NCBI GenBank assembly: GCA_027066435.1
Contig: JAMONX010000060.1
Coordinates: forward strand, 5,112 to 69,111
DNA from: Campylobacterales bacterium
Lineage (GTDB): Bacteria; Campylobacterota; Campylobacteria; Campylobacterales; QNZT01
Length of the DNA: 64,000 bases
Direction of reading: 5' to 3'
The position numbers and the translations under genes were made by a program. Positions within the stretch are counted from its first letter, which is position 1. Each line of letters opens with the position of its first letter. The notes beneath the pieces are model-generated. The model ran no database searches, was not told where the DNA came from, and was given only the letters and a program-made list of their open reading frames with translations. This document shows, piece after piece, positions 1 through 16,508 of the stretch.

Positions 1-2633
1 AACCTGTTGTTTCACTTGTTGTTACGACACCAGCAGGTCCTGAAACTTTTTTCATTAGAGATAAAGATTTTACCGAAATTGGACCGTTTGTTTTTTATCT
101 AAATCAAAAACCGATTAAAAGTAATAGATACATTCATATTTATAATAGAGATGATAAATTTTATTTTATCTCAAATAGAGATATAGATTGGTTTAAAATG
201 GCTACTCAGAAAAAAGGTACAATGAAGGCAAATATTGAACATGAATTTCAATCCAAGATGCTTTACACGATTGATGGTGTAAACTTTGTTCCAAAAGAGA
301 TTTATAAAAAAGGTGCTGTTAAAATTGTCTCTAAAGATAGAGAAAGTGATAAGGTAGATTTAAAGACACAAGATGGTTTATCTGCACTTATAGTAAATGT
401 TGAATACAAGGATAAAGTAAAAGAGGTTGCTTTGATGGGTATGGGGCAGAGATTCAAAGGTTATGCTTCAAATATAAAAATGGATGATTTGGACTTGACA
501 TTGGAGTGGGGTTCAAAAGAGTTGTATTTACCTTTTTCACTTAAATTAGAGGAGTTTGTAATGGATAAGTATGCTGGGTCTATGAGTCCATCTTCTTATA
601 AAAGTAAAGTGGTTTTAATAGACAAGGAAAATGGTATAAATATGCCATATGAAATATATATGAATAATACACTTTCATATGGAGGATATAAATTTTTTCA
701 ATCCTCTTATGATCAAGATGAAAAGGGTACGATTTTATCAGTAAATCATGACCCTGGAAAATGGCCCACATATATTGGTTATACACTTTTAGCTATAGGA
801 TTTTTCTTAAACTTGATAAGTCCTTATAGTAGATTTGGAAAATTGGCTCGTACTAGATATGGTAATATTGGCGGTTTTGTTATGATTGCCTCATTGTTGT
901 CATTATTGTCTTTTGCACAGCCCTTACAAGCACAAGGAAATGGACAGAGTGTACTAACTCAAGAAGAAATTGTAGAGTATATAACTAAAGTTGACGCAGA
1001 TCATGCTAAAAATTTCGGAACCATAATTATACAAGATAGAGGAGGGCGGATGAAGCCTATTGATACTATCTCAACCGATGTAATAAATAAAATATCTGGA
1101 AAATCATCATTTTTTGGGCTTAATCATAATCAAGTTTTACTAGGTATGCTTTCAAAAGCCCAATATTGGCAGAATGTAGATATGATAAAAGCCACTCATC
1201 CTGAAGTAAAATCTCTTTTTGGTATGAGTGAAGATCAAAAATATTTTGCTTTTAACGATATATTTAATGCAAAAGGTGAGTATAAAATAGGGGACGCGGT
1301 AAGTGATGCCCATAGAAAAAAACCAGCCGAAAGAGATAAATTTGATAAAGATCTTATTAAAGTAGACGAAAGAGTTAATGTAGCATATATGGTTTATCAA
1401 GGAGATATGCTAAGAGCGTTTCCTTATGAAAATGCTCACAACAATAAGTGGCATACACCAGCAGAGATTGTAAAAGATATTTCTGCTGGTACAAGAAAAA
1501 CATTACAAACTCTATTGTCAAATTATTTTCATGGCATCTCAGAAGGTATGGATAAAGGTAATTGGAATAGTGCTGATAAAGCAGTTGAAGCAATTAAAGA
1601 GTATCAGTCAAGAGTTGGTTCGGAGGTAATGCCTGGTGACTTAAGAGTTAAATTAGAGGTTTTATATAATAGCCTTGATATTTTTAATAAGTTAACACCT
1701 GTATATCTTATCTCTGGACTTATACTGTTGATGTTTATTTTTGTAAGATTAGTAAGACCAAAACTTAATACAAAGTTTATAACAAAAGTTATCATAATTA
1801 TTATGACACTTGGCTTTATAGCTCATACTATAAACCTTGGACTTAGATGGTATATTGGGGCTCATGCACCTTGGAGTAATGGATATGAAGCTATGCTATA
1901 TATTTCATGGACAACCGTTCTTGCAGGATTGTCTTTTGCAAGGCAGTCTGATTTTTCTGTTGCTACAACTGCAATTTTTGCAGGTTTGACACTTTTTACA
2001 GCACATTTAAGTTGGCTTGATCCGCAAATAACAAATATTGTTCCAGTGTTAAAATCATATTGGTTAACAATTCATGTTTCAGTAATTACCGCAAGTTATG
2101 GGTTTTTGGGACTTAGTACACTTTTAGGTTTTATTACTCTTATTCTTTTTATTATGATGAGTAAAAAAGGTTCGGCAGAAGTTAGGGAACAAATTGTAAT
2201 GAATATTAAAGAGGCAACAAGAATCAATGAAATGTCTATGATACTAGGTATCTCTCTTTTAACTGTAGGTAACTTCTTAGGAGGTGTTTGGGCAAATGAA
2301 AGTTGGGGTAGATATTGGGGCTGGGATCCAAAAGAGACTTGGACTTTGGTGACAATTTTTGTTTATGTTATTGTTCTCCACCTTAGATTTGTACCAAAAT
2401 TAAGTACCCCGTATATATTTGCTGTTGCATCTGTAGTATCATATTCCTCTGTTATTATGACTTACTTTGGGGTAAACTATTATCTTGCAGGGATGCACTC
2501 ATACGCTGGCGGTGATCCTGTACCAATTCCTACTTGGATATTTTATGTGATAGCAACTATTGCAGTAATTTCTATGTTGGCATATGGCAAAACTGGACTC
2601 TATAAAAGTGTAAAGGTTAAAAAGGTAAATTAA
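1..2633 (+). CDS. ccsBA: Cytochrome c biogenesis system II synthase, fused ResB/CcsB-CcsA (CcsBA); 5' end cut by window edge
   Basis: The frame of the 198..2633 ORF stays open with no stop back to nt 3, so the gene begins upstream of the window. The C-terminal half is polytopic and carries the CcsA tryptophan-rich WWD motif (WANESWGRYWGWDPKETW). A single fused polypeptide is typical of Campylobacterota. Confidence 0.85.
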   Translation, partial: PVVSLVVTTPAGPETFFIRDKDFTEIGPFVFYLNQKPIKSNRYIHIYNRDDKFYFISNRDIDWFKMATQKKGTMKANIEHEFQSKMLYTIDGVNFVPKEIYKKGAVKIVSKDRESDKVDLKTQDGLSALIVNVEYKDKVKEVALMGMGQRFKGYASNIKMDDLDLTLEWGSKELYLPFSLKLEEFVMDKYAGSMSPSSYKSKVVLIDKENGINMPYEIYMNNTLSYGGYKFFQSSYDQDEKGTILSVNHDPGKWPTYIGYTLLAIGFFLNLISPYSRFGKLARTRYGNIGGFVMIASLLSLLSFAQPLQAQGNGQSVLTQEEIVEYITKVDADHAKNFGTIIIQDRGGRMKPIDTISTDVINKISGKSSFFGLNHNQVLLGMLSKAQYWQNVDMIKATHPEVKSLFGMSEDQKYFAFNDIFNAKGEYKIGDAVSDAHRKKPAERDKFDKDLIKVDERVNVAYMVYQGDMLRAFPYENAHNNKWHTPAEIVKDISAGTRKTLQTLLSNYFHGISEGMDKGNWNSADKAVEAIKEYQSRVGSEVMPGDLRVKLEVLYNSLDIFNKLTPVYLISGLILLMFIFVRLVRPKLNTKFITKVIIIIMTLGFIAHTINLGLRWYIGAHAPWSNGYEAMLYISWTTVLAGLSFARQSDFSVATTAIFAGLTLFTAHLSWLDPQITNIVPVLKSYWLTIHVSVITASYGFLGLSTLLGFITLILFIMMSKKGSAEVREQIVMNIKEATRINEMSMILGISLLTVGNFLGGVWANESWGRYWGWDPKETWTLVTIFVYVIVLHLRFVPKLSTPYIFAVASVVSYSSVIMTYFGVNYYLAGMHSYAGGDPVPIPTWIFYVIATIAVISMLAYGKTGLYKSVKVKKVN

Positions 2634-2768: not shown

Positions 2769-3734
2769 TCACTCTAACCATAATCCTCTAGGTTTATCTT
2801 TCTTCTTATCTTGACGACCTGGTTCATAAAAATATGGTTTATCAGATGCATGAGGGTTATGACATTTTACACAACTACTTTCGCTAGAAGCTGCACAATT
2901 TGTACCTTCTTTTTTAGTTGTTCGTCCTTTTCCTTCATGACAACTTGTACATAGTTTGTTTGGAGTAAGTCTTATGAAGTATTTATTTGGTGAGGAGTGT
3001 GGGTTATGACATCTATCGCATATACCTATAATTACTGGATCGTGCTTATATTTTTTTGACCTAAATGATTGCTGAAACTTTTTATGACAATGTATGCAAG
3101 CTTTATTGATTTCTAATGGGACAGGGTATTTTGTTAGCTTTGAATGTGTTTTTTCATGACAAGTACTGCATACCCAATTTACCGCAGGTGCATGGGCATC
3201 TTGGTATTTTAATAAACTTTGATGACAATTGTAGCAATTTGACTCTTTAGGATCTAAAAATGCAAATCCTTTTTTTTCATTAGAATTCATTTTATGGCAT
3301 TTTTTACATGCTTTTTCATTTTTTGTTGTATGAAAATAGTTGTTTTCATAACCTTTTGGTGAATATTTATATCTTTTATAGACAGGAAATTTATAATATG
3401 ATTCTATTAGCGATTCAAATCTCTTTTTTCCTTTTGAATAAGCCCTTACAAATATTGTATTTTCACCAAAATCTAGAGATACTAATGTGCAATAGGTATC
3501 TCTCTTTTTTGTAATATTATTTTCATAAATAGTACCATTATTTGAATATATTTTTATCTTATCAATGTTCTTATCAATTATTTTAACAACAACTGTAAGA
3601 GTGTTTTTTTGAAAAACTGTATTAGTTTGTGGTTCTAATATTTTTATGGGTTGAGTCTCTTTAGCATTTATATTTAAAAGCAGGGCAAACATAAATAAAA
3701 CTAAATATTTTCCCAAAATTTTTTCTTTTATCAC
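2769..3734 (-). CDS. Periplasmic heptahaem c-type cytochrome with beta-rich N-terminal domain
   Basis: N-terminal signal peptide (MIKEKILGKYLVLFMFALLLNINA). Seven CXXCH motifs (CKKCH, CYNCH, CSTCH, CIHCH, CDRCH, CTSCH, CVKCH), several in the CxxCHNPH context. The first ~100 aa have no haem motif and show an alternating beta-strand-like pattern. Confidence 0.85.
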   Translation of the reverse strand: MIKEKILGKYLVLFMFALLLNINAKETQPIKILEPQTNTVFQKNTLTVVVKIIDKNIDKIKIYSNNGTIYENNITKKRDTYCTLVSLDFGENTIFVRAYSKGKKRFESLIESYYKFPVYKRYKYSPKGYENNYFHTTKNEKACKKCHKMNSNEKKGFAFLDPKESNCYNCHQSLLKYQDAHAPAVNWVCSTCHEKTHSKLTKYPVPLEINKACIHCHKKFQQSFRSKKYKHDPVIIGICDRCHNPHSSPNKYFIRLTPNKLCTSCHEGKGRTTKKEGTNCAASSESSCVKCHNPHASDKPYFYEPGRQDKKKDKPRGLWLE

Positions 3735-3744
3735 GCTTTTCCCT

Positions 3745-5331
3745 TTATCTTTTTATACCAATTGGATTAACCCTATCGTAAGAAAATTTCTTATGACATG
3801 CTGGTTGACACGATCCTCCATTTTTAGTTTCTATATATCTTAGTGGAAATTTTACTCCGCCAAATACTGTATAGTCTCTTATCAGCTTTGGATGCTTAGA
3901 CGCATGTTCATCATGACAAGCTCTACAGGTTCTGCCTTTTCTATCATTAATATGTAAAAAGTGAAGATTTACCTTTCCATCTCTAAATTTTGTACTTTTT
4001 GTAGTGAACTCTTTTTTTATTTTATCAATCTTGTGACATTTAAAGCAGATAAAACCTTTTTTTGAAAAATCACCATAAAACTTTTTAGTATATGACTCTT
4101 TTAGAATACTAAAGTGGTTTGAACCGTGAGGATTATGACATCCTGCACATCCACCCTCTTTTTCTACATCAGATATTGGTTTATGCCAATTCTTATGGGT
4201 TTTTAAATGTTCAGCCATATTCATCATCATTTGACCATCTTCATCAGATTTTAAAGATTTATTATGACACTCAAGACAGGTTTTAACTTGATCTTTTTTT
4301 AATATATTTTTATGATTTGATGCATGTGGATCATGACATTCTAAACATTTCTTACCTTTTCCTACTATCGCACCGTGTTGATATTTTACATTTTTGTAAT
4401 TTATCCATTTTTTATCCATTTTTCTTTTGTTGTGGCATTTCATACAAAGCCCTAAATTCCCATCTTTGGATTTTAAGAGTTTTTTATATTTTGAATTATG
4501 ATGTTCATGACACTCTAAGCAATTTTTTTCAACAGGTTTATGTATATATTTTTTATTTAAATTTATAGTTTTCTTCATATCTTTAACTGACTTATTTTTG
4601 TCATGACATTTAAGACATAGATTATTAACAGATTTCCCTTTTAGTAAAACTTTAGTATTTGATTGATGTGGATCGTGACATTTAAAACATTTACCGTCTT
4701 CCACAGGTTTATGTTTATATTGTTGTTTATCTTTTCGAGGATGACACTTATAACAAAGTGCGACTATATTCTTTTTTGTTACAAGTTTTCCAGGTTCTGC
4801 ACTGTTTCCATCATGACAAATGAGACATGCTCCCTTTTTGAAAGGCTCGTGAAGATATTTTTTGAGAGGTTTAAACTTTTGCGGTAAATCTTCTAATTTT
4901 ACAAGTTCTGTAACTTTTGCATCGATTTTTGAGTGATGCAACATCTTTTCTTCGGTTGCATGCTCTTGCATCGCTATTACTTCTTGTTCTTCTTGTAACT
5001 TTGCAAGTTCGCTATCTAACTTATTTTTTGAAGCAAGCTTAATTTCTAATTCTTTAACCTTTTCTAATAATCCTTCAATTTTTTCTCTCTGCCCAGTTTT
5101 AAAATCTTCAGCAATTTTTGTAATATTAATATCTCTTAACTCTTCTTCACTTACATCTAAATCTATACCTTCGGTGTAATATGAGTGAGGATCTTTTTGT
5201 AAATTTGTCATAATATTTCCCATTATGACTACAAATTTACCAAATTTTGTTCCAACATCATATTTTATAAAAAATATAACTGAAAAAACTATTATTAGAG
5301 TTAAAATGATTAATTTAATATTTTTTGCCAT
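3745..5331 (-). CDS. Membrane-anchored dodecahaem c-type cytochrome (11 CXXCH + 1 CX3CH)
   Basis: N-terminal hydrophobic anchor (IKLIILTLIIVFSVIFFI), then a charged coiled-coil-like stretch (EKIEGLLEKVKELEIKLASKNKLDSELAKLQEEQE). Motifs: CLICH, CYKCH, CFKCH, CLKCH, CLECH, CMKCH, CLECH, CLECH, CAGCH, CFKCH, CRACH and a terminal CQPACH. Confidence 0.85.
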   Translation of the reverse strand: MAKNIKLIILTLIIVFSVIFFIKYDVGTKFGKFVVIMGNIMTNLQKDPHSYYTEGIDLDVSEEELRDINITKIAEDFKTGQREKIEGLLEKVKELEIKLASKNKLDSELAKLQEEQEVIAMQEHATEEKMLHHSKIDAKVTELVKLEDLPQKFKPLKKYLHEPFKKGACLICHDGNSAEPGKLVTKKNIVALCYKCHPRKDKQQYKHKPVEDGKCFKCHDPHQSNTKVLLKGKSVNNLCLKCHDKNKSVKDMKKTINLNKKYIHKPVEKNCLECHEHHNSKYKKLLKSKDGNLGLCMKCHNKRKMDKKWINYKNVKYQHGAIVGKGKKCLECHDPHASNHKNILKKDQVKTCLECHNKSLKSDEDGQMMMNMAEHLKTHKNWHKPISDVEKEGGCAGCHNPHGSNHFSILKESYTKKFYGDFSKKGFICFKCHKIDKIKKEFTTKSTKFRDGKVNLHFLHINDRKGRTCRACHDEHASKHPKLIRDYTVFGGVKFPLRYIETKNGGSCQPACHKKFSYDRVNPIGIKR

Positions 5332-5364
5332 AAGCTATCCTATCTACTAAAGAGCAAAAGCTCT

Positions 5365-5913
5365 TTAGTGAATACTTCTTTTTTCTCTTTTTATTGTAGT
5401 CCCTGTTGGATCTTGAAATTCACCAGCTGGACACTCCTCTTCAATAACCTTATTTCTTACTAGTTTTTTCTTGTCAGCATGATGAGGGCTATGGCATTTG
5501 TTACAATTTAGCTCCCTATCTACCTTCTTCACTGGTGGGTGACATTTGTAGCAAAGACTTTCAACTGTTTTTGTAACTAGTGCAGCAACTTTATCTTTCT
5601 TAGGGGCATGGCAGACATGACAAGCTCCCTGACCAAAAGGCGGATGAATGACTTCTTTAAAAGGTTGAAAAGCTTGAGGAAGCTCTTTTTCCTTTATCAT
5701 ATTGGTTGTCCCAGTATTATTTTTAATATACTCTTTAGTCATACTATCCTCATGCCCTTCATCATGATAGAATGAGTGAGGATCTTTTGCTAAATTTGTT
5801 GCGATATTTTTATTTATCTCAAAAAACTTTCCTATTTTATCACCGCCAAAAATGACAGTTATGGCTATAAGGACTACTACTACAATTAGTGCTATTTTTA
5901 GTGTTTTATTCAT
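5365..5913 (-). CDS. Membrane-anchored trihaem c-type cytochrome
   Basis: N-terminal TM anchor (LKIALIVVVVLIAITVIFGG). Three CXXCH motifs (CHVCH, CYKCH, CNKCH). The N-terminal module is paralogous to that of the 528-aa cytochrome. Confidence 0.8.
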   Translation of the reverse strand: MNKTLKIALIVVVVLIAITVIFGGDKIGKFFEINKNIATNLAKDPHSFYHDEGHEDSMTKEYIKNNTGTTNMIKEKELPQAFQPFKEVIHPPFGQGACHVCHAPKKDKVAALVTKTVESLCYKCHPPVKKVDRELNCNKCHSPHHADKKKLVRNKVIEEECPAGEFQDPTGTTIKREKRSIH

Positions 5914-5926
5914 AATCTAATCCTTC

Positions 5927-6691
5927 CTATTCTGCATAATCTGAAGTATCTTCAATTGGAGCTGGAAGATGCTTCTCTAGTTCATAATGTCCGACATACT
6001 TATGACAATCAACACATTGGGCTTTTTTCCACTCTTTGCCATCTCTAACTTTTAACTTACCAGCAAAATATGCTTTATGTGCAATAAATGGTTTGCTTTT
6101 TAGTTTAGTGGCTCGAAGTAGATTTTCATGACAGTGGAGGCATCCTGAGTCATATACAAATTTTCTCTTATGTTCTCTTTTTTCATGCCAGTCAATTTTT
6201 GAAGTATCGTGAGTTGTTTCAACCCAAAGATCCCACATTCCTGATTTACCCTTTTGTACAAGATATCCAAGTAAAGAGTCATGTGGAAGGTGACAGTCTG
6301 CACATTTTGCAACAACTCCACTTTCTCCAAAACCACCGTGAACACTATTTCTATAAGCTTTTGCCATTGGTTCCATAGAGTGGCATGCACTACAAAATTG
6401 AAGTCCAGATGTTTGCTTAATAGCAATTGCGGAGATAAAAGATATAAACATACCAAGAGCTATAAAACCAAGTGCTAAAAGAAGGTAAAATAGTTTACTC
6501 TTTCCACTTTTTTCCACTTTTTTATCGGTTTTTAAAGTGCTTTTTTTATAATCCTTTGCACCTACCTGCTGTTTTGTTGTATCTTGTTTAGGCACAGGTT
6601 TTGAATTACTCGCCTCTTTGGGCTTTATTTTTTGCCCTTGTGCCTTTAGCTTGGCATCCTCGATGCTCTTTTGTATATCCTTCTTCTCCAT
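5927..6691 (-). CDS. NapC/NirT-family tetrahaem cytochrome c (membrane quinol dehydrogenase type)
   Basis: One TM helix (LFYLLLALGFIALGMFISFISAIAI) is followed directly by CSACH, then CADCH, CLHCH and CVDCH, with NapC/NirT-like spacing. A good SD (AAAGGA) lies 6 nt upstream of the ATG at 6691. The Lys-rich N-terminal tail is unusually long, at 76 aa. Confidence 0.8.
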   Translation of the reverse strand: MEKKDIQKSIEDAKLKAQGQKIKPKEASNSKPVPKQDTTKQQVGAKDYKKSTLKTDKKVEKSGKSKLFYLLLALGFIALGMFISFISAIAIKQTSGLQFCSACHSMEPMAKAYRNSVHGGFGESGVVAKCADCHLPHDSLLGYLVQKGKSGMWDLWVETTHDTSKIDWHEKREHKRKFVYDSGCLHCHENLLRATKLKSKPFIAHKAYFAGKLKVRDGKEWKKAQCVDCHKYVGHYELEKHLPAPIEDTSDYAE

Positions 6692-6985
6692 TCACAATCC
6701 TTTCTAAATTAGTGTAAGGTTTCACGCATATCACAAGAAGTAATTTAATTATTTTAATTAATTCACAACAGCTCAGATTGGTCTACCTATTCGCCTCCAC
6801 GCGAGATAAAATTGTAACATAAAAATAATAAAAAAGAAAAGTTATTATAATTTTTATAAGAAAAGTAAAGAATAACTTTAATGATTTTTTAACGAAATAT
6901 AACTTATAATAATAATTGATAAGGGGTTGTTGTTGAATATGATAATGCAAAATTTAATTCTCTTAGCTTTCAAAATGAGTGATTT

Positions 6986-8134
6986 TTGAAAAAAATTGTT
7001 TTAGTATGTAATACATCTTGGGGAATGATGATGTTTCGAAAAGGTATTATGATAAATTTTTTAAAAGAGGGTCATGAAGTTTTTGTTTTAGCTCCATATG
7101 ATGATTATTCAAAGCAGATTGAAGAGTTAGGGTGTCAGTATATTGAAGTGCCAATGGATAACAAGGGTGCAAGTATATTTAAAGACTTGTTACTTTTACG
7201 AAGACTATATAAGCACTATAAGAAAATTTTACCAGATTTAATATTTCATTATACAATTAAACCAAATATTTTTGGAACTATGGCTGCACACTATGCAAAA
7301 ACAAAATCTATCGCTGTTATTACTGGACTTGGATATACATTTATAAATCAAGGACTTGCTGCAAAGGCTGCTAAACAACTCTACAAGTTGGCTTTACCAA
7401 AGAGTAGAAAAGTATGGTTTATAAATCATGAAGACAGAAAAATGTTTATAAAAGAGGGGTTACTCTCTAGAGACCTTATTGAGATTTTGCCAGGTGAAGG
7501 TGTTGATATGGTTAAATATTCACCTATTGAGAAATCTAGGAATGATGGTAAATTTGTTTTTGTATTAATTGCGAGGCTTCTTTGGGATAAGGGAGTAGGT
7601 GAGTTTGTTCAAGCAGCAAAAGAGATAAAGAAAACTTATCAAAATACAGAGTTTCAGTTAGTTGGTTTTGTTGATGTAAAAAATCCACAAGCTATTTCAA
7701 AAGAGCAAGTTCTCTATTGGGTTGAAAAAGGTTGGATTACTTATAAAGGCTCTACTAATGATGTACGAGATTTTATAAGTTCTGCTGATTGTGTAGTTCT
7801 TCCATCATATAGAGAGGGGATAAGTAAAATACTTTTAGAATCTGCTTCTATGAAGAAGCCGATTATTGCATCTAATGTTCCAGGTTGCAGAGATGTTGTG
7901 GAGAATGCTGGTAGTGGTTATTTATGTAAAGTTAAAAATACAAATGATTTAATTTTAAAAATGGAAAAGATGCTTACTCTAAGCAAAAGTGAGCTTTTGA
8001 ATATGGGGGAGAAGGGTAGAAATCTTGTAAAAGATGAATTTGATGAAAATATTATAATTAAAAAATATAGCCAATCTATTAAATACCATACTTTAAAAGG
8101 TGAAGAAAATGGTGGTTTTGTAAAGAAATATTAA
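6986..8134 (+). CDS. Glycosyltransferase, GT-B fold group 1 / family 4
   Basis: C-terminal EX7E-type region (YREGISKILLESASMKKPIIASNVPGCRDVV) and overall GT4 length and layout. TTG start. Confidence 0.75.
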   Translation: MKKIVLVCNTSWGMMMFRKGIMINFLKEGHEVFVLAPYDDYSKQIEELGCQYIEVPMDNKGASIFKDLLLLRRLYKHYKKILPDLIFHYTIKPNIFGTMAAHYAKTKSIAVITGLGYTFINQGLAAKAAKQLYKLALPKSRKVWFINHEDRKMFIKEGLLSRDLIEILPGEGVDMVKYSPIEKSRNDGKFVFVLIARLLWDKGVGEFVQAAKEIKKTYQNTEFQLVGFVDVKNPQAISKEQVLYWVEKGWITYKGSTNDVRDFISSADCVVLPSYREGISKILLESASMKKPIIASNVPGCRDVVENAGSGYLCKVKNTNDLILKMEKMLTLSKSELLNMGEKGRNLVKDEFDENIIIKKYSQSIKYHTLKGEENGGFVKKY

Positions 8135-8178
8135 TAATAGTCGATTATAGGTGAATATACTATTTTCAAGGGTTACAT

Positions 8179-10509
8179 ATGCAACTTGAGTTTGAAGGCA
8201 ACTCACTAAGTTTAAAAAAAATTATAGCTTCATTTTTTAAATACAAATGGATTAATCTTCTTATAATATTCTGTACTATTTTTTTAGGCTTATTTAATTA
8301 TTACAAAAGTGTGCTTGTTTATGAATCTTGGGCTACTGTAGAGATTAGTACAAATCCATTGGATAATAGGGTTGATTTTTTTGGTAATCAAATTGGAAGA
8401 CCTGCCGCTTTAGAGACTGAGATAGATATTTTAAAATCAGAATTTTTACTAAAAAAAACACTTCACTCTATTGATCTGAGTGTTGAATACTATAAAACAA
8501 AAAGTTATAAAACTACAAGAGTTTATGAACAAAGACCTTTTATAGTTAGGAATTTATATGTCAAAAAAAGCAAAATTTATGGAAAAATGTTTAATATAAA
8601 ACATCTAAATAAATTTCAATATGAACTTTCGATGCAAAACTCATTTATGCAAGATTTATTTTCTCTATTTCCAGAACAAATTATGCCTTCATTTTTAAAA
8701 CCTTCTAAAAGAGAGATATATCGTTATGGGGAGAAAGTTTCGTTAGATAACTGCTCTTTTGTAATTGAAAAAAATGCAAATTTCCAAAGAGCTAAATATA
8801 GCTTTGTTTTAAATTCTTATGAAAATATTGTAAAAAGTATCAAAAGTAATTTAAGTATTAAACCTGCATCTTTTAAGTCCTCAGTTCTTAAAATTACATA
8901 TAAAGATAATATTGCTTCAAGAGCTAAAGATTTTTTAAACTCTTATCTTCAAAACTATCTTCTTTATAGTGAAAAAAGTTTAGTTGAAGCAGATACTAGA
9001 ACACTTGATTTTATTAATGAACAATTACAACTCATAAGTGGAAAATTAAAAGAGTCTGAAGATAGACTGCAAGGTTATAAAAGTAGCAATAATATTACAG
9101 ATATTGAGACTCAAAAGAGAGAAGTAGCTCAAAAAATTAATGATTTTCATAATCAATTAAATGATGCCAAGATTGAACTTAGAGTTGTAAATAAACTTTA
9201 TGCGGAAACTAAAAAAGGAAATTACAACATAATCAGTTCAATTGCCAAAGAGTATCCAGTCTTAAATACAATGCTTGAAAACTTAGAAGACTCAAAGCTT
9301 GAATTTGAGAGGAAGTCAGCACTCTTAACAATAAATCATCCTGAAATTATAAGTTTGACCACTGCTATTAAAAATATCGAAGGGGGAATTTTAGATATTT
9401 CCAAAGGAATCTTAGAGAGATCAAAAGAGCGGGTCAACTCTCTTAAAGGTATGATTAGAGATTATATATCAGAAATTAAAAAACTTCCAGAAATTGAAAA
9501 AGAGTTAGTAAAACATGAAAGAATTTTTGCAGTAAATGATAAAGTCTATAACTATTTATTAAATAAACAGTCTGAATTATCTATTGAAAAAGCTTCAACT
9601 AAGCCAGATAAAAAAGTGCTTGATTTTGCAAAAAAATCATCTACCCCTTTGAGTCCTAAGCTTAGTATTGCACTAGCAATTAGTACTTTTTTAGGTCTTG
9701 TCTTTGCACTACTTCATACGTTAATTAGACTCAAGCTTGATACAAAAATAAAAGATAAAAATGATATTTATGCTTTAACTGATATTCCAATTTTTGGTAT
9801 GATTCCATTTGTTAAAGATTCGGAAAAATATAACTCGGCTTATGTGTTAGATGAGCCAAATTCTATAACCAGTGAAGCATTTAGAAATATAAAAAATAAT
9901 TTAGAATATACAGTAACTAACAATAAGTGTAAAGTCATCTTAGTAACTTCAACTGTACCAAATGAAGGGAAAACTACAATTTCAGCAAATCTTTCTGCAA
10001 TATTGGGAATGGGTGAGAAAAAAGCTATATTACTCTCTTTAGATCTTCGTCGTCCAGAATTACATTATAAGTTTGCACTATCAAACAAAATTGGAATTAG
10101 TGATGTTCTCTCAAATCGAGTTAGCATAAAAGAGGTTATTTGGGAAAATGAAAACTTTAAGAATCTTAATATTGTAACTTCTGGAAAAATCCCACCAAAC
10201 CCAGCAGAACTTCTGGCATCAACTCGCATGAAAGATTTGATAAATGAGCTTAGTGATAAATATGATTATATCATTTTAGATACTCCTCCTTTTGAATATG
10301 TATCAGATGCTTTGAGTTTAGTGAAATATGCAGATGTAACATTATTTGTGTTAAAATCTGAATTTTCAGAAGATAAATATATAAAAGAAATTGATAAAAT
10401 AGTTAAAAAACTTGGTATTGAGAATCCAGGTATTATTTTAAACTCTGTAAAAGAAAAAAATTATGTAACTAAAAAATTTGATTATAAATATATCTATCAT
10501 GAAGCTTGA
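8179..10509 (+). CDS. Polysaccharide co-polymerase / tyrosine autokinase (Wzc-like)
   Basis: Two TM helices flank a long coiled-coil periplasmic domain (Wzz-like). The C-terminal P-loop ATPase has Walker A (PNEGKTT) and Walker B (YIILDTPP) plus a Tyr-rich tail (KKFDYKYIYHEA). Confidence 0.8.
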   Translation: MQLEFEGNSLSLKKIIASFFKYKWINLLIIFCTIFLGLFNYYKSVLVYESWATVEISTNPLDNRVDFFGNQIGRPAALETEIDILKSEFLLKKTLHSIDLSVEYYKTKSYKTTRVYEQRPFIVRNLYVKKSKIYGKMFNIKHLNKFQYELSMQNSFMQDLFSLFPEQIMPSFLKPSKREIYRYGEKVSLDNCSFVIEKNANFQRAKYSFVLNSYENIVKSIKSNLSIKPASFKSSVLKITYKDNIASRAKDFLNSYLQNYLLYSEKSLVEADTRTLDFINEQLQLISGKLKESEDRLQGYKSSNNITDIETQKREVAQKINDFHNQLNDAKIELRVVNKLYAETKKGNYNIISSIAKEYPVLNTMLENLEDSKLEFERKSALLTINHPEIISLTTAIKNIEGGILDISKGILERSKERVNSLKGMIRDYISEIKKLPEIEKELVKHERIFAVNDKVYNYLLNKQSELSIEKASTKPDKKVLDFAKKSSTPLSPKLSIALAISTFLGLVFALLHTLIRLKLDTKIKDKNDIYALTDIPIFGMIPFVKDSEKYNSAYVLDEPNSITSEAFRNIKNNLEYTVTNNKCKVILVTSTVPNEGKTTISANLSAILGMGEKKAILLSLDLRRPELHYKFALSNKIGISDVLSNRVSIKEVIWENENFKNLNIVTSGKIPPNPAELLASTRMKDLINELSDKYDYIILDTPPFEYVSDALSLVKYADVTLFVLKSEFSEDKYIKEIDKIVKKLGIENPGIILNSVKEKNYVTKKFDYKYIYHEA

Positions 10510-10531
10510 TTAGGTATAGGAGTGTGTATAT

Positions 10532-12433
10532 ATGTGTGGTATCGCTGGTTTTATAGATTTTTCTCAAAAGTCATCTAATGATATTTTAGAAAAGATGACA
10601 GATGTTTTACATCACAGAGGGCCAGATGATAGTGGGTATTTTTTTGACACAGAAGAAAATGCACAAATTGGTTTAGGGCATAGAAGGCTTTCTATCTTAG
10701 ATTTAAGCTCCCACGGTCATCAACCTATGAATTTTGATGATATAGAAATTGTCTACAATGGAGAAGTTTATAATTTTGTAGAGATAAAAAAAGAGTTAGA
10801 GAGATTTGGTTATATCTTTAGTTCACACACTGATACAGAAGTTATTTTAAAAGCTTATCATAAGTGGGGATTAGAGGCTCTTTCCAAACTTAATGGCATG
10901 TTTTCTATCTCAATATATGATAAAAGAATTTCAAAAGTTTTTTTAATTCGTGATCGTGCAGGTATTAAGCCTTTATATTGGTATTATGAAAATTCTATGC
11001 TTCTATATGCAAGTGAACTTAAAAGTTTTCATCAGCATCCAAATTTTAAAAAAGAGATAAACTTAGATGCACTCTCTCTTTTTTTACAATTTCAATATAT
11101 TCCTGAGCCTTACTCTATCTTTAATAATGCCCATAAACTTAGAGCTGGACATATCTTAGAGATAGATTTAAAAACAAAAGATGTCAGAGAGAGAGAGTAT
11201 TGGAGTGCAATAGAACATTATAATAAGCCAAAGCTTGATATTAGCGAAGATGAAGCAATTTTGGAGGTTGAAAAACTTTTAAAGTCATCATTCTCTTATC
11301 GTTTAGTTTCAGATGTTCCTGTCGGGATATTTTTGAGTGGTGGTTATGATAGCTCTCTTGTAACTGCACTTTTACAAAGCCAAAGGGCTGAAAAATTAAA
11401 AACTTTTACCATAGGGTTTTATGAAAAAGGTTTTGATGAAGCACCGTATGCTAAAAAAGTTGCTTCATATCTTGGCACAGAGCATTGTCAATACTATTGT
11501 ACACAAAAAGATGCGCTAGAAATTATTCCAAAATTACCAACTATCTATGATGAACCTTTTGCAGATGCATCTGCAATTCCAACAATATTAGTAAGCACTT
11601 TAGCAAAAAAAGAGGTAACAGTGACTCTTAGTGCTGATGGGGGAGATGAACTATTTGCTGGATATGAAAAATATACAAGAAGTGTAAATTATTATAAAAA
11701 ATTCTCTTATATTCCAAATTTTATAAAAACTCCTTTAGCATCTATGATGAGTAGCCTAAACCCATCTTCAATTCCTCTATTTAGGGATACATACAATTTT
11801 ACGACTAGATATGAGAAGATGCAAAATATGTTAAGCTCAAATAATCCATGTGAGATAATGAAATATGCATCTTTATACTCAACTTTCAATGAATCAAATA
11901 ATCTTTTAAAAAATAGGGTACAAACCCTGATAACAAATTTTGATAAAGGGTCTCTTTTAAATGAGTATAATGATGATATCAACAAGATGTTAGCAATTGA
12001 TTATAAAACTTATATGGTTGATGGAGTATTGACAAAAGTTGATAGAGCGACTATGAGTCTATCTCTTGAAGGTAGAGAGCCATTTTTAGATTATCGCCTT
12101 ATTGAATTTGTAGCAACCTTGCCGTCGCATCTTAAATATAAAAACGGTGTACAAAAACATCTTTTAAAAGAGATTACTCACAAATATTTGCCAAAAGAGT
12201 TGATGGATAGACCTAAGATGGGGTTTGGAGTACCGATGCAAGAGTGGTTTAAAGATGAGTTAAAAGATTATTTTTTACACTATTTAGATGCAAAGAGATT
12301 GAAAAAAGAGGGAATTTTTGATGAAAATGAAGTTGTTAAATTAAGAGATAATTATCTAAATGGAAAAAAACAGAATGTAGATACACTTTGGTCAATATTA
12401 ATGTTTGAGATGTGGTATGAGAGGTGGATGTAA
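10532..12433 (+). CDS. asnB: Asparagine synthase (glutamine-hydrolysing) family amidotransferase
   Basis: N-terminal MCGIAG nucleophile (class II glutamine amidotransferase) and the SGGYDSS PP-loop motif. 633 aa. Its position next to polysaccharide genes could mean a sugar amidotransferase role rather than Asn synthesis. Confidence 0.8.
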   Translation: MCGIAGFIDFSQKSSNDILEKMTDVLHHRGPDDSGYFFDTEENAQIGLGHRRLSILDLSSHGHQPMNFDDIEIVYNGEVYNFVEIKKELERFGYIFSSHTDTEVILKAYHKWGLEALSKLNGMFSISIYDKRISKVFLIRDRAGIKPLYWYYENSMLLYASELKSFHQHPNFKKEINLDALSLFLQFQYIPEPYSIFNNAHKLRAGHILEIDLKTKDVREREYWSAIEHYNKPKLDISEDEAILEVEKLLKSSFSYRLVSDVPVGIFLSGGYDSSLVTALLQSQRAEKLKTFTIGFYEKGFDEAPYAKKVASYLGTEHCQYYCTQKDALEIIPKLPTIYDEPFADASAIPTILVSTLAKKEVTVTLSADGGDELFAGYEKYTRSVNYYKKFSYIPNFIKTPLASMMSSLNPSSIPLFRDTYNFTTRYEKMQNMLSSNNPCEIMKYASLYSTFNESNNLLKNRVQTLITNFDKGSLLNEYNDDINKMLAIDYKTYMVDGVLTKVDRATMSLSLEGREPFLDYRLIEFVATLPSHLKYKNGVQKHLLKEITHKYLPKELMDRPKMGFGVPMQEWFKDELKDYFLHYLDAKRLKKEGIFDENEVVKLRDNYLNGKKQNVDTLWSILMFEMWYERWM

Positions 12434-12461
12434 AACTACCTTATAACAGTAGTTCCACCTC
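12421..12461. terminator. Imperfect hairpin spanning the abutting stops of convergent asnB and lnt
   Basis: GAGGTGG...CCACCTC outer stem and AACTAC/GTAGTT inner stem surround the two stop codons (12431-33 and 12436-38). No obvious U-tract. Confidence 0.3.
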
Positions 12462-13725
12462 TATTTGCACTATGGTAGATGACAGTCTTGTATTTGATAG
12501 AAAAATAACGAAGTAAAAGTTTTTGCAGTGTTGGCTCGATTGAAGGTGTAAACCAAGCATTATTGCTAGTTGCTATCATAAATTTTGGGTTTTTAACATA
12601 TAATTCTTCTCTAGTTGCTTCATAACAGATTGCATTTCTAAAGATTTCACCTTTTATATCGATATCAGTTGGGTTATCTGCGGTTTTATAATCTTCTGCA
12701 CCATTATAAAAAAAATCATTAATTAATTTATTTAGAAACTTAGGAAGTGGTATCTGTTCACCAAATGGAACTAAAATGACTTTATTGGCAATTTTTACCT
12801 TTGTATTTACAAAATAGTATGTAGAGTTATATGAGTCATAGCCATCACTATAAAGAGCTCCAGTGACTATTGTGATTTCTTGGGAAAGTTCTTTTAATTT
12901 TTCCATTAAAATTGGCTCTTGATTTAAAAATAGAGCAAATGCACTCTCACTCAAAACTACGATATCATACTTTTGTTTTATCGCTTTATATATAATATTT
13001 AAATTATTTTGTATCGATTCTTCTGCATAATAATCTTTCCATTTTATATCTTGAGAAAGATTTGTATCTGAGAGATAAATTTTCTGGTTTGAGAGTGGAA
13101 GAGAATTGTTTGGTGTAAAATTTATACTTACAATTAAAACTAAAAGTGCAATTATTCTCCACCAGGATTTCAGTGTTATAAAAAGAGCAATTGAGAGTAA
13201 AAAAAGTCCAAACTGCCACTTTGAAATTCCAAAAAAAGTATCTATGAGTGTAAGTTCGGGTATCATCCAGTTAAAATTTAATGGATGCACAAAACTAAGC
13301 CCTAAAAAGAGTAAACCTCGCATAAATGGACTTTGAAATATACCTATAATCCAAAATATTATCCCATACCCAAGTCCGACAAAAAGCACCATAAGCGGTA
13401 TGACAAACATCGCATCATAATACCTAAAAGAGAATCCAATCCAATAAAACCAAAAAACTCCTATAAAAAATCCACTCCAAAAAAGAGCTCTTTTATCACC
13501 TTTTAAAAGCATATAAAAGCCAAATATTACATTTATTGAATTTATAATTTTTAAAACTATTTCAGAAAATAGTTCATAATGTGAAAGATATATAAAAATT
13601 GAAAGAGCAAGAGCTGTTAAAAAGCCTTCTATTATAATAGAAGTGCTAAGATATCCCCTTAAATTTTTAACCTTAAAGGATGGATATGCAAGAGTCAGGA
13701 AGTGTGATAGCATCATTGTTACCAT
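12436..13725 (-). CDS. lnt: Apolipoprotein N-acyltransferase
   Basis: Polytopic N-terminal membrane domain followed by a carbon-nitrogen hydrolase-like C-terminal domain (LSESAF, ICYEAT containing the catalytic Cys context). The size and architecture fit Lnt. Confidence 0.7.
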   Translation of the reverse strand: MVTMMLSHFLTLAYPSFKVKNLRGYLSTSIIIEGFLTALALSIFIYLSHYELFSEIVLKIINSINVIFGFYMLLKGDKRALFWSGFFIGVFWFYWIGFSFRYYDAMFVIPLMVLFVGLGYGIIFWIIGIFQSPFMRGLLFLGLSFVHPLNFNWMIPELTLIDTFFGISKWQFGLFLLSIALFITLKSWWRIIALLVLIVSINFTPNNSLPLSNQKIYLSDTNLSQDIKWKDYYAEESIQNNLNIIYKAIKQKYDIVVLSESAFALFLNQEPILMEKLKELSQEITIVTGALYSDGYDSYNSTYYFVNTKVKIANKVILVPFGEQIPLPKFLNKLINDFFYNGAEDYKTADNPTDIDIKGEIFRNAICYEATREELYVKNPKFMIATSNNAWFTPSIEPTLQKLLLRYFSIKYKTVIYHSANRGGTTVIR

Positions 13726-13964
13726 TAGTTGTTTTATTTGGAATTTTTTATTTTTTAATCATTCGCCCTCAGCAAAAACAGGCTAAGCAACACAAAGAGA
13801 TGCTCGAATCACTTAAAAAAGGTGATAAGATAGTCACAAGTGGCGGTCTATATTGCGAAGTGATAAAAACTGAAGAGGATTTTATCAAAGCAAAGCTTAA
13901 TGGAGATACTACTGTAAAAATTTCAAGAGATTTTATCTCAAGAAAATTGGAAGATCAGGCATAA
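13680..13964 (+). CDS. yajC: Preprotein translocase subunit YajC
   Basis: Single TM helix followed by the IRPQQKQAKQHKEML and KGDKIVTSGG motifs. Lies immediately upstream of secD-secF. Confidence 0.85.
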   Translation: MDMQESGSVIASLLPLVVLFGIFYFLIIRPQQKQAKQHKEMLESLKKGDKIVTSGGLYCEVIKTEEDFIKAKLNGDTTVKISRDFISRKLEDQA

Positions 13965-13968
13965 GAGA

Positions 13969-15537
13969 ATGAATTATAGACTAATAATTTTTATTGTTGC
14001 TATAATTTTTGGCGTAGGAATGTCTATGCCTTCATTTTTGCAGACTGAAAAAGGTTCCAAAATATCTCTAGGACTTGATCTTCAAGGTGGACTTTATATG
14101 CTTCTTGGAGTTAAAACGGATGAAGCAGTTAAATCAAAGATGAAATCAATAGCTTCTAGTATTAAATTTTCAACCGATGATAATGATATTATTATTGATG
14201 ATTTAAAGATTCATGATGGATTTGTATCGTTTGAGCTTTTAGATGCAGATGAAGTAGAATATATTGATAAGATGATTAGTGATATCGAAGGTCTACAAGT
14301 AGCTAAAAATGGTTTGAAATATGAAGTATCATTAACAGAGTTAGAGACTCAAAATGTAAAAGAGTATGCTGTCAAACAAGCTGTTGATACGATTAGAAAT
14401 AGATTAGATCAATTTGGATTAGCTGAACCAAATGTTGCAAAACAAGGTGTTAATCAAATCATGGTAGAACTTCCTGGTATTAAAACACTAGAAGATGAAA
14501 AGAGAGCAAAAGAGCTTATTGCAAAACCAGCTTATCTTCAAATGATGGCTGTTGATGAAAAAAGAGCAGATCAAGTTTATACATTGAGTGAGGCTGAGGC
14601 TTCCGAGTATGGTGATGTAATATTGCCTGATATCAATAAAGTTGATAAACATATACTAAAAGAGGTACCAATCCTTGATGGTAGTATGTTAACAGATGCA
14701 AGAGTCGCTTTTAATGAATCCAATCAAGCCATAATAAACTTTACACTAAACAGTGAAGGTGCTAAGATATTTGGTAACTTTTCAGGAGACAATGTTGGAA
14801 ATAGAATGGCAGTAGTTCTTGATGGTATTGTCTATTCAGCTCCTGTAATTCGAGAGAGAATTGGTGGTGGAAGTGGTCAGATTAGTGGAGGATTTTCTAT
14901 AGCAGAGGCTCATGATGTTGCAATTGCATTAAGATCTGGAGCACTTTTAGCTCCAGTTGAGCTTTTAGAACAAAAAAGTGTTGGTCCCTCTTTGGGAGCT
15001 GATAGTATTAAAGCTAGTATGATTGCACTAATATCAGGATTTGCTTTAGTCTTTTTGTTTATGATTTTCTATTATGGATATGCTGGAGTGGTTTCTGATA
15101 TTGCTTTAGTTGCAAATCTTTTTATAATTATTGCAGTTATGGCTATGTTTGGAGCAACACTCACACTTCCAGGAATGGCTGGTATAGTTTTAACAGTTGG
15201 TATGGCAGTAGATGCAAATGTTATCATAAATGAGCGGATTCGTGAACTCTTAAAAAGTGGTGCTACCATAAAGACTGCTATTAGTAAAGGTTATTCAAAT
15301 GCCTTGACTGCAATTTTAGATGCAAATATCACAACCTTGATAGTTGCCGTGATACTTTATGCTTATGGTACAGGACCTATTAAAGGTTTTGCTTTGACTA
15401 TTAGTATTGGTATTTTAGCTTCAATGCTTACAGCTATTATGGGAACACATGGTGTTTATGAAGCCTTATACTCTCGTATAAATAAGAGTAAAGACTTAAG
15501 AAAATGGTTTGGTATTAGAATAGAGAAGGAGAAATAG
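13969..15537 (+). CDS. secD: Protein translocase subunit SecD
   Basis: Large periplasmic domain then six C-terminal TM helices, with conserved LGLDLQGG and VGPSLG motifs. yajC-secD-secF synteny. Confidence 0.95.
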   Translation: MNYRLIIFIVAIIFGVGMSMPSFLQTEKGSKISLGLDLQGGLYMLLGVKTDEAVKSKMKSIASSIKFSTDDNDIIIDDLKIHDGFVSFELLDADEVEYIDKMISDIEGLQVAKNGLKYEVSLTELETQNVKEYAVKQAVDTIRNRLDQFGLAEPNVAKQGVNQIMVELPGIKTLEDEKRAKELIAKPAYLQMMAVDEKRADQVYTLSEAEASEYGDVILPDINKVDKHILKEVPILDGSMLTDARVAFNESNQAIINFTLNSEGAKIFGNFSGDNVGNRMAVVLDGIVYSAPVIRERIGGGSGQISGGFSIAEAHDVAIALRSGALLAPVELLEQKSVGPSLGADSIKASMIALISGFALVFLFMIFYYGYAGVVSDIALVANLFIIIAVMAMFGATLTLPGMAGIVLTVGMAVDANVIINERIRELLKSGATIKTAISKGYSNALTAILDANITTLIVAVILYAYGTGPIKGFALTISIGILASMLTAIMGTHGVYEALYSRINKSKDLRKWFGIRIEKEK

Positions 15538-16508
15538 TGGAATTTTTTAAATCAGAAAAAACATATAATTTTATGGGTATGAGTAAGATATTTATTGTAA
15601 TTTCTACTATTATGATATTGGCATCTTGGGTACTTATCTTTACTAAAGGTTTAAATTACGGTATAGATTTTGCGGGTGGAACTGTTGTTCAAGTTCAGTA
15701 TGAAACAAAAGCACCAGTTACAAAAATTAGAGAAGTAGTGACGAGTGTAAAAGAGTATAGTAGTGCTACTGTAACGGAGTTTGGTTCACCACAAGAGGTA
15801 GTTATAAAATTTCCAACAAGTAGCAGTTCTGTAAGTACAGATATTGGGGATGAAATTAAAAAATTACTTGAAGGTACTGGTAATTTTGAGATAAGAAGAG
15901 TTGATATGGTAGGACCAAAAGTAGGAAGTGAACTTCGTGAAAAAGGTCTCTTAGCTATGGGATTTTCAATTCTAGCTATACTTATCTATATTGCTCTTCG
16001 TTTTGAGTGGCGTTTTGGTGTAGCTTCTGTTTTTGCATTAGTTCACGATGTATCTATTGCTCTTGGTATGATAGTACTATTTGAAGTTGATGTAAACCTT
16101 GATATTTTAGCAGCAATTTTAACTATAATGGGTTATTCTCTAAATGATACAATTATTGTTTTTGATAGAATTAGAGAAGGGATTAGAGAGTCAAAAATTT
16201 ATGATTTGTTTAAAATCATAAATGAATCAATTACTAAAACATTGTCTCGTACTACCCTTACATCATTAACTACATTTTTTGTGGTATTGACACTATTTTT
16301 ATTTGGTGGAGAGATTATTCACGGTTTTGGTTTTACAATGCTTGTAGGTATCGTTGTTGGGACATATAGTTCGATTTTTATAGCTTCACCATTTTTAAAA
16401 TGGCTTGGATTTGATGTAGAAGGTTATAAATTAAATGAAGCTAGAAAAGAGAAAATTAGAAAAGAGAAAGAGAAACTAAGAGCCCAATTTGAAGGTGGAG
16501 TAATTTAA
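15537..16508 (+). CDS. secF: Protein translocase subunit SecF
   Basis: GTG start overlaps the secD stop. YGIDFAGGT motif and a SecF-type membrane domain (GYSLNDTIVVFDRIRE). Confidence 0.95.
   Translation: MEFFKSEKTYNFMGMSKIFIVISTIMILASWVLIFTKGLNYGIDFAGGTVVQVQYETKAPVTKIREVVTSVKEYSSATVTEFGSPQEVVIKFPTSSSSVSTDIGDEIKKLLEGTGNFEIRRVDMVGPKVGSELREKGLLAMGFSILAILIYIALRFEWRFGVASVFALVHDVSIALGMIVLFEVDVNLDILAAILTIMGYSLNDTIIVFDRIREGIRESKIYDLFKIINESITKTLSRTTLTSLTTFFVVLTLFLFGGEIIHGFGFTMLVGIVVGTYSSIFIASPFLKWLGFDVEGYKLNEARKEKIRKEKEKLRAQFEGGVI

Follow-up and report, generated by a model that had tools for sequence, protein, structure and literature searches.

Clusters that encode only c-type cytochromes raise the question of where their electrons go. 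We examined this question for an operon of four such genes, here called g1 to g4, in a 64,000-nucleotide stretch of contig JAMONX010000060.1 from a Campylobacterales bacterium (the window). With moderate confidence, we favor the view that a conserved porin-cytochrome module in two parts carries electrons across the whole cell envelope and that g1 to g4 form its inner-membrane and periplasmic half. Respiratory electrons would most likely travel along this wire from the quinol pool of the membrane to the surface of a vent- or redoxcline-type bacterium.

All four genes are on the minus strand, in the order g1 (5927-6691, 254 amino acids), g2 (5365-5913, 182 amino acids), g3 (3745-5331, 528 amino acids), and g4 (2769-3734, 321 amino acids). 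In the open reading frame (ORF) listing of the window, they are separated by 13, 33, and 10 nucleotides, and an AGGA- or AAGG-type ribosome-binding site that resembles a Shine-Dalgarno sequence precedes each of them. Four CXXCH motifs are encoded by g1, three by g2, eleven plus one CX3CH by g3, and seven by g4, which gives a motif count of 4 + 3 + 12 + 7 = 26 haem sites. Nine sites across the four proteins have a CxxCH(N/D/S/E/L)PH context. Outside the operon, in the remaining ~60 kb, CXXCH occurs in only two ORFs of the window, with one motif each. Therefore, the concentration of haem sites in the operon is not due to chance.

The predicted entry point is g1, a putative menaquinol dehydrogenase. 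Its product scored 98.3 bits against the NapC/NirT family (PF03264; cut-off, 24.1) and has four CXXCH motifs and a single transmembrane helix at residues 71 to 89, which follows a lysine-rich cytoplasmic N-terminal extension of ~65 residues. It aligned to Desulfovibrio vulgaris NrfH (2J7A_C; E value, 6e-9), and the alignment included CSACHSM, an instance of the CXXCHXM motif of the quinol-site haem 1, together with the aligned Asp. These are the features that g1, alone among the four proteins, shares with NrfH, CymA, and NapC. It differs from those proteins in its partners, which are multihaem wires rather than NrfA, NapAB, or TorA. It also differs in its N-terminal extension and in falling below the NCBIfam equivalog cut-offs for NrfH (75.6; cut-off, 134.2), NapC (37.1; cut-off, 349), and TorC (60.8; cut-off, 455). 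Because its scores were below every cut-off, we rejected g1 as an equivalog of any of the three, and sequence comparison places it in a NapC/NirT subfamily outside those named groups. We also found a natural 688-amino-acid fusion (P0039) of a NapC/NirT domain corresponding to g1 with a 12-haem protein corresponding to g3. As a Rosetta-stone-type protein, this fusion is independent sequence evidence that g1 acts with g3 and may feed it.

The other three proteins matched Paired_CXXCH_1, with scores of 47.6 bits for g2, 177.8 bits for g3 (six domains), and 77 bits for g4. The g2 protein, a trihaem cytochrome, also matched Cytochrome_C7 (25.9 bits; cut-off, 24.8). It has an N-terminal hydrophobic anchor, for which cleavage by signal peptidase is ambiguous. 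In a local alignment, g2 was a truncated paralogue of g3 that corresponds to residues 1 to ~240 without the helical linker. The two share the anchor, a KDPHS.Y box, an LPQ.F.P..K..H.PF..GAC..CH box, and haems 1 to 3.

The g3 protein also has an N-terminal hydrophobic anchor, with no plausible signal-peptidase site. The anchor is followed by a linker of ~130 residues and then by a 370-residue haem core. Residues ~81 to 148 contain no Pro or Gly and have heptad character by a crude test. In the family alignment, the core has 12 invariant or near-invariant His residues outside the haem motifs, equal to the number of haems. The twelfth haem site, CQPACH (residues 505 to 513; window 3745-3810), is near-invariant across phyla as GGSC-x-P-x-CH. 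If only CXXCH is counted, the g3 family has eleven sites, a possible reason for the undecahaem name of the Tenderia counterpart.

A profile of the g3 family matched MtrA in the PDB (6r2q_A) with an E value of 3.5e-29, and the next match was at 1e-6. By this profile comparison, g3 is a distant relative of MtrA and DmsE, and the homology is clear. Against the DmsE-family model TIGR03508, g3 scored 103.7 bits and g4 scored 61.1 bits (cut-off, 192.2). We rejected both as members of the DmsE/MtrA decahaem family because they were below the cut-off and have 12 and 7 haems, not ten. Membership in the GSU2203 family was rejected because of scores below the cut-off.

The g4 protein is a heptahaem cytochrome with a signal-peptide-like N terminus (..NINA|KE), which predicts that it is secreted. 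Its first ~130 residues are haem free, and sub-threshold matches to the Ig-like Big_7 and Glucodextran_B families at residues 30 to 105 suggest that this domain is probably Ig-like. It has exactly 14 His residues for its 7 haems, and 5 of the 7 that lie outside the motifs are invariant in the family alignment. Its C terminus (2769-2900) does not have the HPTKG segment and eighth haem (C..CHKK) that most homologues have. Some relatives have two g4 paralogues (Nitrosophilus alvini and the loci L003 and L085), and one of the L085 copies is an 8-haem lipoprotein. In the loci examined, a g4-type gene was always 3' of the 12-haem gene in Campylobacterota, Aquificota, and some Nitrospirota.

Neither CXXCK nor other catalytic-type CXnCH motifs were present in g1 to g4, apart from two adjacent sites in g2 that overlap trivially. 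Because the His inventory matches the haems and no catalytic motif was found, g2 to g4 look like bis-His electron wires rather than enzymes. In these respects the original prediction, which was made from the letters of the window, held up. It had given the gene coordinates and gaps exactly as we found them and had counted about 26 haem sites, with paired CxxCH(N/D/S)PH contexts. It had described a membrane-anchored tetrahaem NapC/NirT protein that takes electrons from quinol, an anchored trihaem protein, an anchored protein with 11 CXXCH, one CX3CH, and a coiled-coil segment, and a signal-peptide heptahaem protein with a haem-free N terminus. It had also described the whole as a wire, not an enzyme. 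The searches that it proposed against the NapC/NirT, paired-CXXCH, and c7 families gave the matches described above.

To decide where such a wire might end, the other side of the operon has to be considered. As had been predicted, g4 converges on ccsBA, which encodes a fused system II cytochrome c synthase (1-2633, plus strand; PF01578 and PF05140) and ends 135 nucleotides from the g4 stop codon. However, the window edge cuts this gene. Full-length CcsBA has 1061 amino acids, 877 of the 1061 codons are inside the window, and the gene starts 552 nucleotides before it; the start at 198 assigned by the ORF lister (an 811-amino-acid ORF) is an artefact of the edge. The same contig obtained from ENA (L001), which is the reverse complement of the window and differs from it by 9 mismatches in 15,331 nucleotides, runs 5,059 nucleotides further past window coordinate 1. 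On L001, ccsBA occupies 12699-15884 of the minus strand. Upstream of it on the same strand are, in order, genes for a tetrahaem cytochrome, an NHL lipoprotein, a peptidyl-prolyl isomerase (PPIase), and a 28-strand outer membrane protein (OMP), with ccsBA last.

In window coordinates, the cytochrome is present as a C-terminal fragment at the contig end (about -4917 to -5057; ...CGTCHDPHS...CLTCHAK), which is homologous to the end of a 219-amino-acid tetrahaem protein in the relative L085. The NHL lipoprotein (about -3472 to -4665; 397 amino acids) scored 92 bits for NHL and has the lipobox FVAC. The PPIase (about -2475 to -3422) is SurA-like, with SurA_N and Rotamase domains, and the OMP (about -692 to -2443; 583 amino acids) has a signal peptide and the terminal sequence ...IRRVF. 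Only a 139-nucleotide gap separates the OMP gene from ccsBA (L001 15885-16023). In relatives, this interval holds a second NHL gene, a gene for a conserved protein of ~160 to 185 amino acids, and usually one for a decahaem protein of ~700 amino acids (N terminus ..IVNTKHNLS). The module of the window genome is pared down. In L085, genes for a response regulator and a histidine kinase (4932-6762) are directly 5' of the tetrahaem-NHL-PPIase-OMP operon, and this pair is a candidate regulator. Hosts that otherwise rely on system I also have a system II synthase (ccsBA or ccsAB) with the module, a hint that its maturation may require a dedicated synthase.

The 583-amino-acid OMP had no match to Pfam or to the MtrB family. 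An AlphaFold2 model built from a 60-sequence alignment had a predicted local distance difference test score (pLDDT) of 91.2 and a predicted template-modelling score (pTM) of 0.73 and consisted of a signal helix and 28 beta-strands; a 6-sequence alignment had given a pLDDT of 45. In a Foldseek comparison with the PDB, the top matches were all large outer-membrane barrels. MtrB gave the best template-modelling score (0.49/0.45), and LptD, ushers, and TonB-dependent transporters reached at most 0.37. The barrel is ~10% identical to MtrB. Word-indexed homologue searches with the single sequence or with a 17-sequence alignment returned only 5 to 6 proteins. An exhaustive profile hidden Markov model (HMM) search found the family in 255 representative clusters among 1.84e9. 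Because this family diverges fast, it is under-detected in the locus counts that follow.

This barrel changes the interpretation of the operon. The original prediction had proposed a wire that spans the periplasm, with no porin. Within the window it was right that porins, Fe-S, molybdopterin, and copper proteins, and further cytochromes are missing, but this absence exists only through the position at which the window starts. Because the window begins inside ccsBA, a porin-cytochrome system appeared to have no porin. A search for porin partners beyond the window had been suggested as a check. An exact look-up of g3 retrieved the same contig from ENA, which encodes the 28-strand OMP, with MtrB as its best structural match. 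What the predictions describe is a wide barrel genetically linked to putative periplasmic and surface multihaem cytochromes, as is generally found in porin-cytochrome conduits of the Mtr, Pcc, and Ext types. With the MtrB-like barrel linked to the operon, that linkage conserved, and the gene set resembling the uet and MtrAB systems (see below), the system most likely crosses the outer membrane rather than stopping in the periplasm.

The conservation of the linkage was assessed by comparing loci. A g3-type 12-haem core was present at no fewer than 569 genome loci (at least 569), in Campylobacterota, Aquificota, Nitrospirota, Phycisphaerae, Acidobacteriota, Desulfobacterota, Myxococcota, Betaproteobacteria, and others. 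We retrieved 80 of the g3-type loci, 49 of which were at least 15 kb long. NHL genes were within 10 kb of the g3-type gene in 41 of the 49, and PPIase genes were within 10 kb in 24. The barrel family adjoins g3-type genes in Campylobacterota (Sulfurimonas), Aquificota, Nitrospirota, Phycisphaerae, Betaproteobacteria, Geobacteraceae, and Aminicenantes. All five further barrel members that we sampled were in clusters of the form small cytochrome-NHL-(PPIase)-OMP-(PPIase)-NHL-large multihaem protein, and in the neighbourhoods sampled the family was met only inside cytochrome clusters.

Two arrangements were found. In type A, g1-g2-g3(anchored)-g4 converges on ...NHL-PPIase-OMP-(NHL-decahaem)-ccsBA. 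Type A carriers are the window genome, the cultured N. alvini, and the relative L085, whose barrel is 45% identical, and in an Aquificota metagenome-assembled genome (MAG) the type A genes are all on one strand. In type B, a single strand encodes monohaem cytochrome c-12-haem protein (no anchor)-g4-type-tetrahaem-NHL-PPIase-OMP-NHL-decahaem-small protein-ccsBA. It is carried by several Sulfurimonas and by "Candidatus Sulfurimonas marisnigri," so that in this Sulfurimonas-type variant a monohaem cytochrome c stands in place of g1 and g2. The Campylobacterales MAG CAYZMY01 (L003 and L008) has both a g1-g2-g3-g4-g4' set and an anchor-less 12-haem gene with a g4-type gene. Because both occur in one MAG, the quinol-linked and anchor-less variants are probably not redundant.

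The original prediction could assign the composition of the operon to no described pathway. With the second operon included, the gene set parallels the uet (undecahaem electron transfer) cluster of "Candidatus Tenderia electrophaga," which has also been reported in some Gallionella and Leptothrix (bioRxiv 10.1101/2022.05.06.490989; PMC10734462). That cluster encodes a tetrahaem protein (UetA), a PPIase (UetB), a 28-strand barrel (UetC), trihaem proteins (UetD, UetE, and UetG), a cupredoxin (UetF), NHL proteins (UetH and UetI), and an undecahaem protein (UetJ), followed by ccsAB. It has been described from comparative genomics and expression only, and the UetJ cluster in Gallionella is listed as "doubled CXXCH motif protein, 11 and 12" haems (bioRxiv 10.1101/2022.05.06.490989; PMC10734462). 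Matched by the published description of the parts, six component types are common to both systems. The window genome has the PPIase, NHL, tetrahaem, and trihaem proteins and an adjacent system II synthase. Its OMP has 28 strands in the AlphaFold2 model, as predicted for UetC, and g3, with 11 CXXCH and one CX3CH, is a UetJ-like paired-CXXCH protein of 11 to 12 haems.

There are also differences from uet. The window genome has a NapC/NirT quinol dehydrogenase, whereas uet has none, and it has an extra heptahaem protein, g4, with its putative Ig-like domain. It has one trihaem protein (g2) rather than three and one NHL gene rather than UetH and UetI, although its relatives have two. A cupredoxin like UetF was not found in the window, L001, or related loci. 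The 12-haem g3 is predicted to be tethered to the inner membrane by its anchor and helical linker, whereas its uet counterpart is predicted to be extracellular. Finally, the genes of the window genome are split into two convergent operons, and the host phylum is Campylobacterota-like, with Nitrosophilus, Sulfurimonas, and Hydrogenimonas as relatives of the source organism. Among the distant barrel homologues sampled, none had the Tenderia-type order with three trihaem proteins and a cupredoxin; all had the order NHL-PPIase-OMP-NHL-multihaem protein.

The logic of the module also resembles that of MtrAB. In MtrCAB or MtoAB with CymA (Shewanella; PDB 6R2Q), a NapC/NirT dehydrogenase feeds a periplasmic multihaem rod that is sheathed by a large barrel. 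However, g3 has 12 haems rather than 10, the barrel of the window genome has 28 strands rather than 26, the window genome has no surface decahaem lipoprotein of the MtrC/OmcA type, and NHL and PPIase partners are absent from Mtr. In gene content, there is a further likeness to NHL-multihaem clusters of metal reducers and corroders, in which paired-CXXCH cytochromes accompany NHL beta-propellers and sometimes a CymA-like protein. Such clusters are found in Desulfovibrio ferrophilus (DFE_0448-0451/0461-0465), Geoalkalibacter, Dethiobacter, and the Gmet_0556 region of Geobacter metallireducens, but no porin was recognised in those of D. ferrophilus. A 2024 study of a Sulfurimonas MAG reported incomplete porin-cytochrome sets and suggested "an undetected porin," for which the barrel family of the window genome is a candidate. 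"Ca. Sulfurimonas marisnigri," a type B carrier, respires MnO2 (PMC6589767), and no Mn(IV) reductase of this species was identified in the literature searched. We regard the system described here as a Uet-like/Mtr-like porin-cytochrome module. With it, this kind of module reaches Campylobacterota and Aquificota, and its inner-membrane half is distinctive. It involves no new principle.

We infer the order of the carriers, the cytochrome that threads the barrel, the outward flow, and the acceptor as follows. The NrfH/CymA-like g1 would oxidise menaquinol at the inner membrane. The membrane-tethered trihaem g2 could then hand electrons to the 12-haem MtrA-related rod g3, which would be held at the inner membrane through its helical tether, and then to the secreted heptahaem g4. 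One of the two rods, g3 or g4, would insert in the 28-strand barrel encoded past ccsBA and pass electrons to a surface cytochrome. In the window genome this would be the small tetrahaem protein, and in relatives the surface cytochromes may also include the decahaem protein of ~700 amino acids. The NHL-propeller lipoprotein and the SurA-like PPIase might serve as assembly or scaffold factors, and the adjacent CcsBA would attach the haems of the module. In the MtrCAB structure, 20 haems extend over about 185 Å. By our estimate, 26 haems could span roughly 230 to 240 Å, comparable to the periplasm plus the outer membrane.

In a more ambitious version, a single g3 polypeptide would be anchored in the inner membrane, tethered across the periplasm, and threaded through the barrel. 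Joined by g1, g2, g4, and the surface tetrahaem protein, it would form a continuous, physically tethered wire of ~30 haems from quinol to surface. This would be the conduit of Campylobacterota and Aquificota, the machinery for MnO2-dependent sulfide oxidation in Sulfurimonas and for mineral respiration at vents, with a co-inherited CcsBA dedicated to the C-x-P-x-C-H site of the twelfth haem. We regard this version as speculative and, taken as a whole, unlikely.

Several points weigh against a trans-envelope module. Outside the window, in an operon of their own, the genes for the barrel, PPIase, NHL, and tetrahaem proteins run opposite to g1 to g4. The window genome does not have the second NHL gene and the decahaem gene between the OMP gene and ccsBA, and proximity to ccsBA may in part mean that both gene sets require haem attachment, not that they serve one pathway. 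The anchoring of g2 and g3 in the inner membrane was assigned by a hydropathy heuristic. Related NHL-cytochrome clusters of D. ferrophilus have been deleted without loss of Fe(III) oxide reduction. The role of Uet is itself predicted only, and Uet has been proposed to work inward, which counts against the direction that we favor (bioRxiv 10.1101/2022.05.06.490989; PMC10734462).

Inward flow is the most serious alternative. The same module could run inward, with g1 reducing menaquinone at the expense of an extracellular donor such as Fe(II) minerals, metal sulfides, a cathode, or a partner cell. Uet, which of the described systems comes closest, was proposed for electron uptake in an electroautotroph, "Ca. 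Tenderia," and relatives of the module were found in chemolithoautotrophs of vents and redoxclines. The monohaem cytochrome c that replaces g1 and g2 in the Sulfurimonas-type variant could feed an oxidase. Moreover, NapC/NirT/CymA-type proteins are reversible. However, a dedicated quinol dehydrogenase is the signature of CymA-Mtr-type outward pathways, and here g1 provides direct entry and is conserved with a tethered g3, even as a fusion. Reducing menaquinone from donors at the Fe(II) level is thermodynamically uphill. In addition, the sole cultured carrier with a relevant phenotype, the type B carrier S. marisnigri, reduces MnO2, albeit with a g1-less variant (PMC6589767). For these reasons we favor outward flow, if only by a modest preference. 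Flow that is inward or bidirectional is distinctly less likely, and a module that runs strictly inward seems doubtful. The original prediction assigned no particular terminal acceptor, and in this it holds; the most plausible acceptor is an insoluble or extracellular oxidant, such as Mn(IV) or Fe(III) oxide, a mineral, a partner cell, or an electrode.

The other alternatives concern what the four cytochromes are. They could be a self-contained wire that ends in the periplasm, with its partner encoded elsewhere and the neighbouring OMP, NHL, and PPIase genes unrelated to it. In favor of this, the four genes make up a separate operon that a terminator-like hairpin follows, the barrel operon has the opposite orientation, and no porin has been recognised in the similar D. 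ferrophilus clusters. Even so, the g3 and g4 homologues of Sulfurimonas and Aquificota share a strand and a cluster with genes for the barrel, NHL protein, and PPIase, every barrel-family neighbourhood sampled was a cytochrome cluster, g3 has MtrA as a relative, and the barrel has a fold like that of MtrB. A wire confined to the periplasm is thus quite improbable. More improbable still is an enzyme, a multihaem reductase or oxidase with one catalytic haem that acts on soluble sulfur, nitrogen, or metalloid oxyanions. There were sub-threshold matches to octahaem tetrathionate reductase, NrfB, HmcA, and the ExtN cytochrome of selenite/tellurite operons, and weak matches to octahaem nitrite reductases, but the scores for the first four were far below the family cut-offs. 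The four proteins have no CXXCK or other special catalytic motif, the conserved non-motif His residues of g3 are as many as its haems, g4 has 14 His residues for 7 haems, and a catalytic partner gene was found in none of the loci examined. We retain the porin-cytochrome module as our preferred reading of the operon.

The boundaries and surroundings of the operon were also examined. A terminator-like hairpin with a T-run is located at 2650-2676 on the minus strand, ~93 nucleotides past the g4 stop codon in the 135-nucleotide convergent spacer. Its 10-bp stem has 4 GC pairs, and it is a consensus match only; the region has 4 terminator-like sites, whereas 1.9 +/- 1.5 would be expected. On the 5' side of g1, the 294-nucleotide divergent intergenic region at 6692-6985 is the sole long non-coding gap flanking the operon and presumably contains its promoter. 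Sigma-70-like matches in this region did not exceed the shuffled expectation, and we claim no promoter. An Rfam scan of the window gave no matches. The rest of the window is housekeeping (SecDF, LeuRS, ValRS, LptE, and purine biosynthesis), with exopolysaccharide genes next to the operon, and sheds no light on its function. Because of the housekeeping flanks and uniform composition, we rejected the possibility of a mobile or foreign island.

The exopolysaccharide genes, divergent from g1 at 6986-12433, encode a group-1 glycosyltransferase, a Wzz/GNVR tyrosine-kinase-type polysaccharide co-polymerase, and an asparagine synthase. A GGDEF diguanylate cyclase is encoded at 19832-21373. Surface-polysaccharide and biofilm functions thus adjoin the putative surface electron conduit. 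At 30613-34450, a gene for a KAP-family P-loop NTPase overlaps by a few bases a gene for a 711-amino-acid WD40/beta-propeller repeat protein. This pair is possibly a defence or signalling module and is apparently unrelated to the cytochromes. Two ORFs of 429 amino acids, at 12436-13725 (minus strand) and 26419-27708 (plus strand), had no Pfam match at an E value of <= 1e-5. On L001, the first of these regions was called as a 358-amino-acid gene with PF26365 (ApoNAT_membrane).

Sulfurimonas, Sulfurovum, and Nitrosophilus, all Campylobacterota, dominate sulfidic redoxclines and hydrothermal vents. To our knowledge, no outer-membrane electron conduit has been identified in this phylum. The barrel described here provides a concrete candidate. 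It belongs to a rare 28-strand family without a Pfam model, it is found in cytochrome/NHL/PPIase clusters wherever sampled, it is linked to a quinol dehydrogenase, and two of its carriers, N. alvini and S. marisnigri, are in culture. Uet-like modules, which have been described bioinformatically in a few Proteobacteria, appear to belong to a wider family that spans many phyla. For a group that dominates ecologically, the system is a candidate route of extracellular electron transfer that can be tested. If the more ambitious version is true, the g3-tethered wire would fill the place of the outer-membrane conduit that has long been missing in Campylobacterota and Aquificota.

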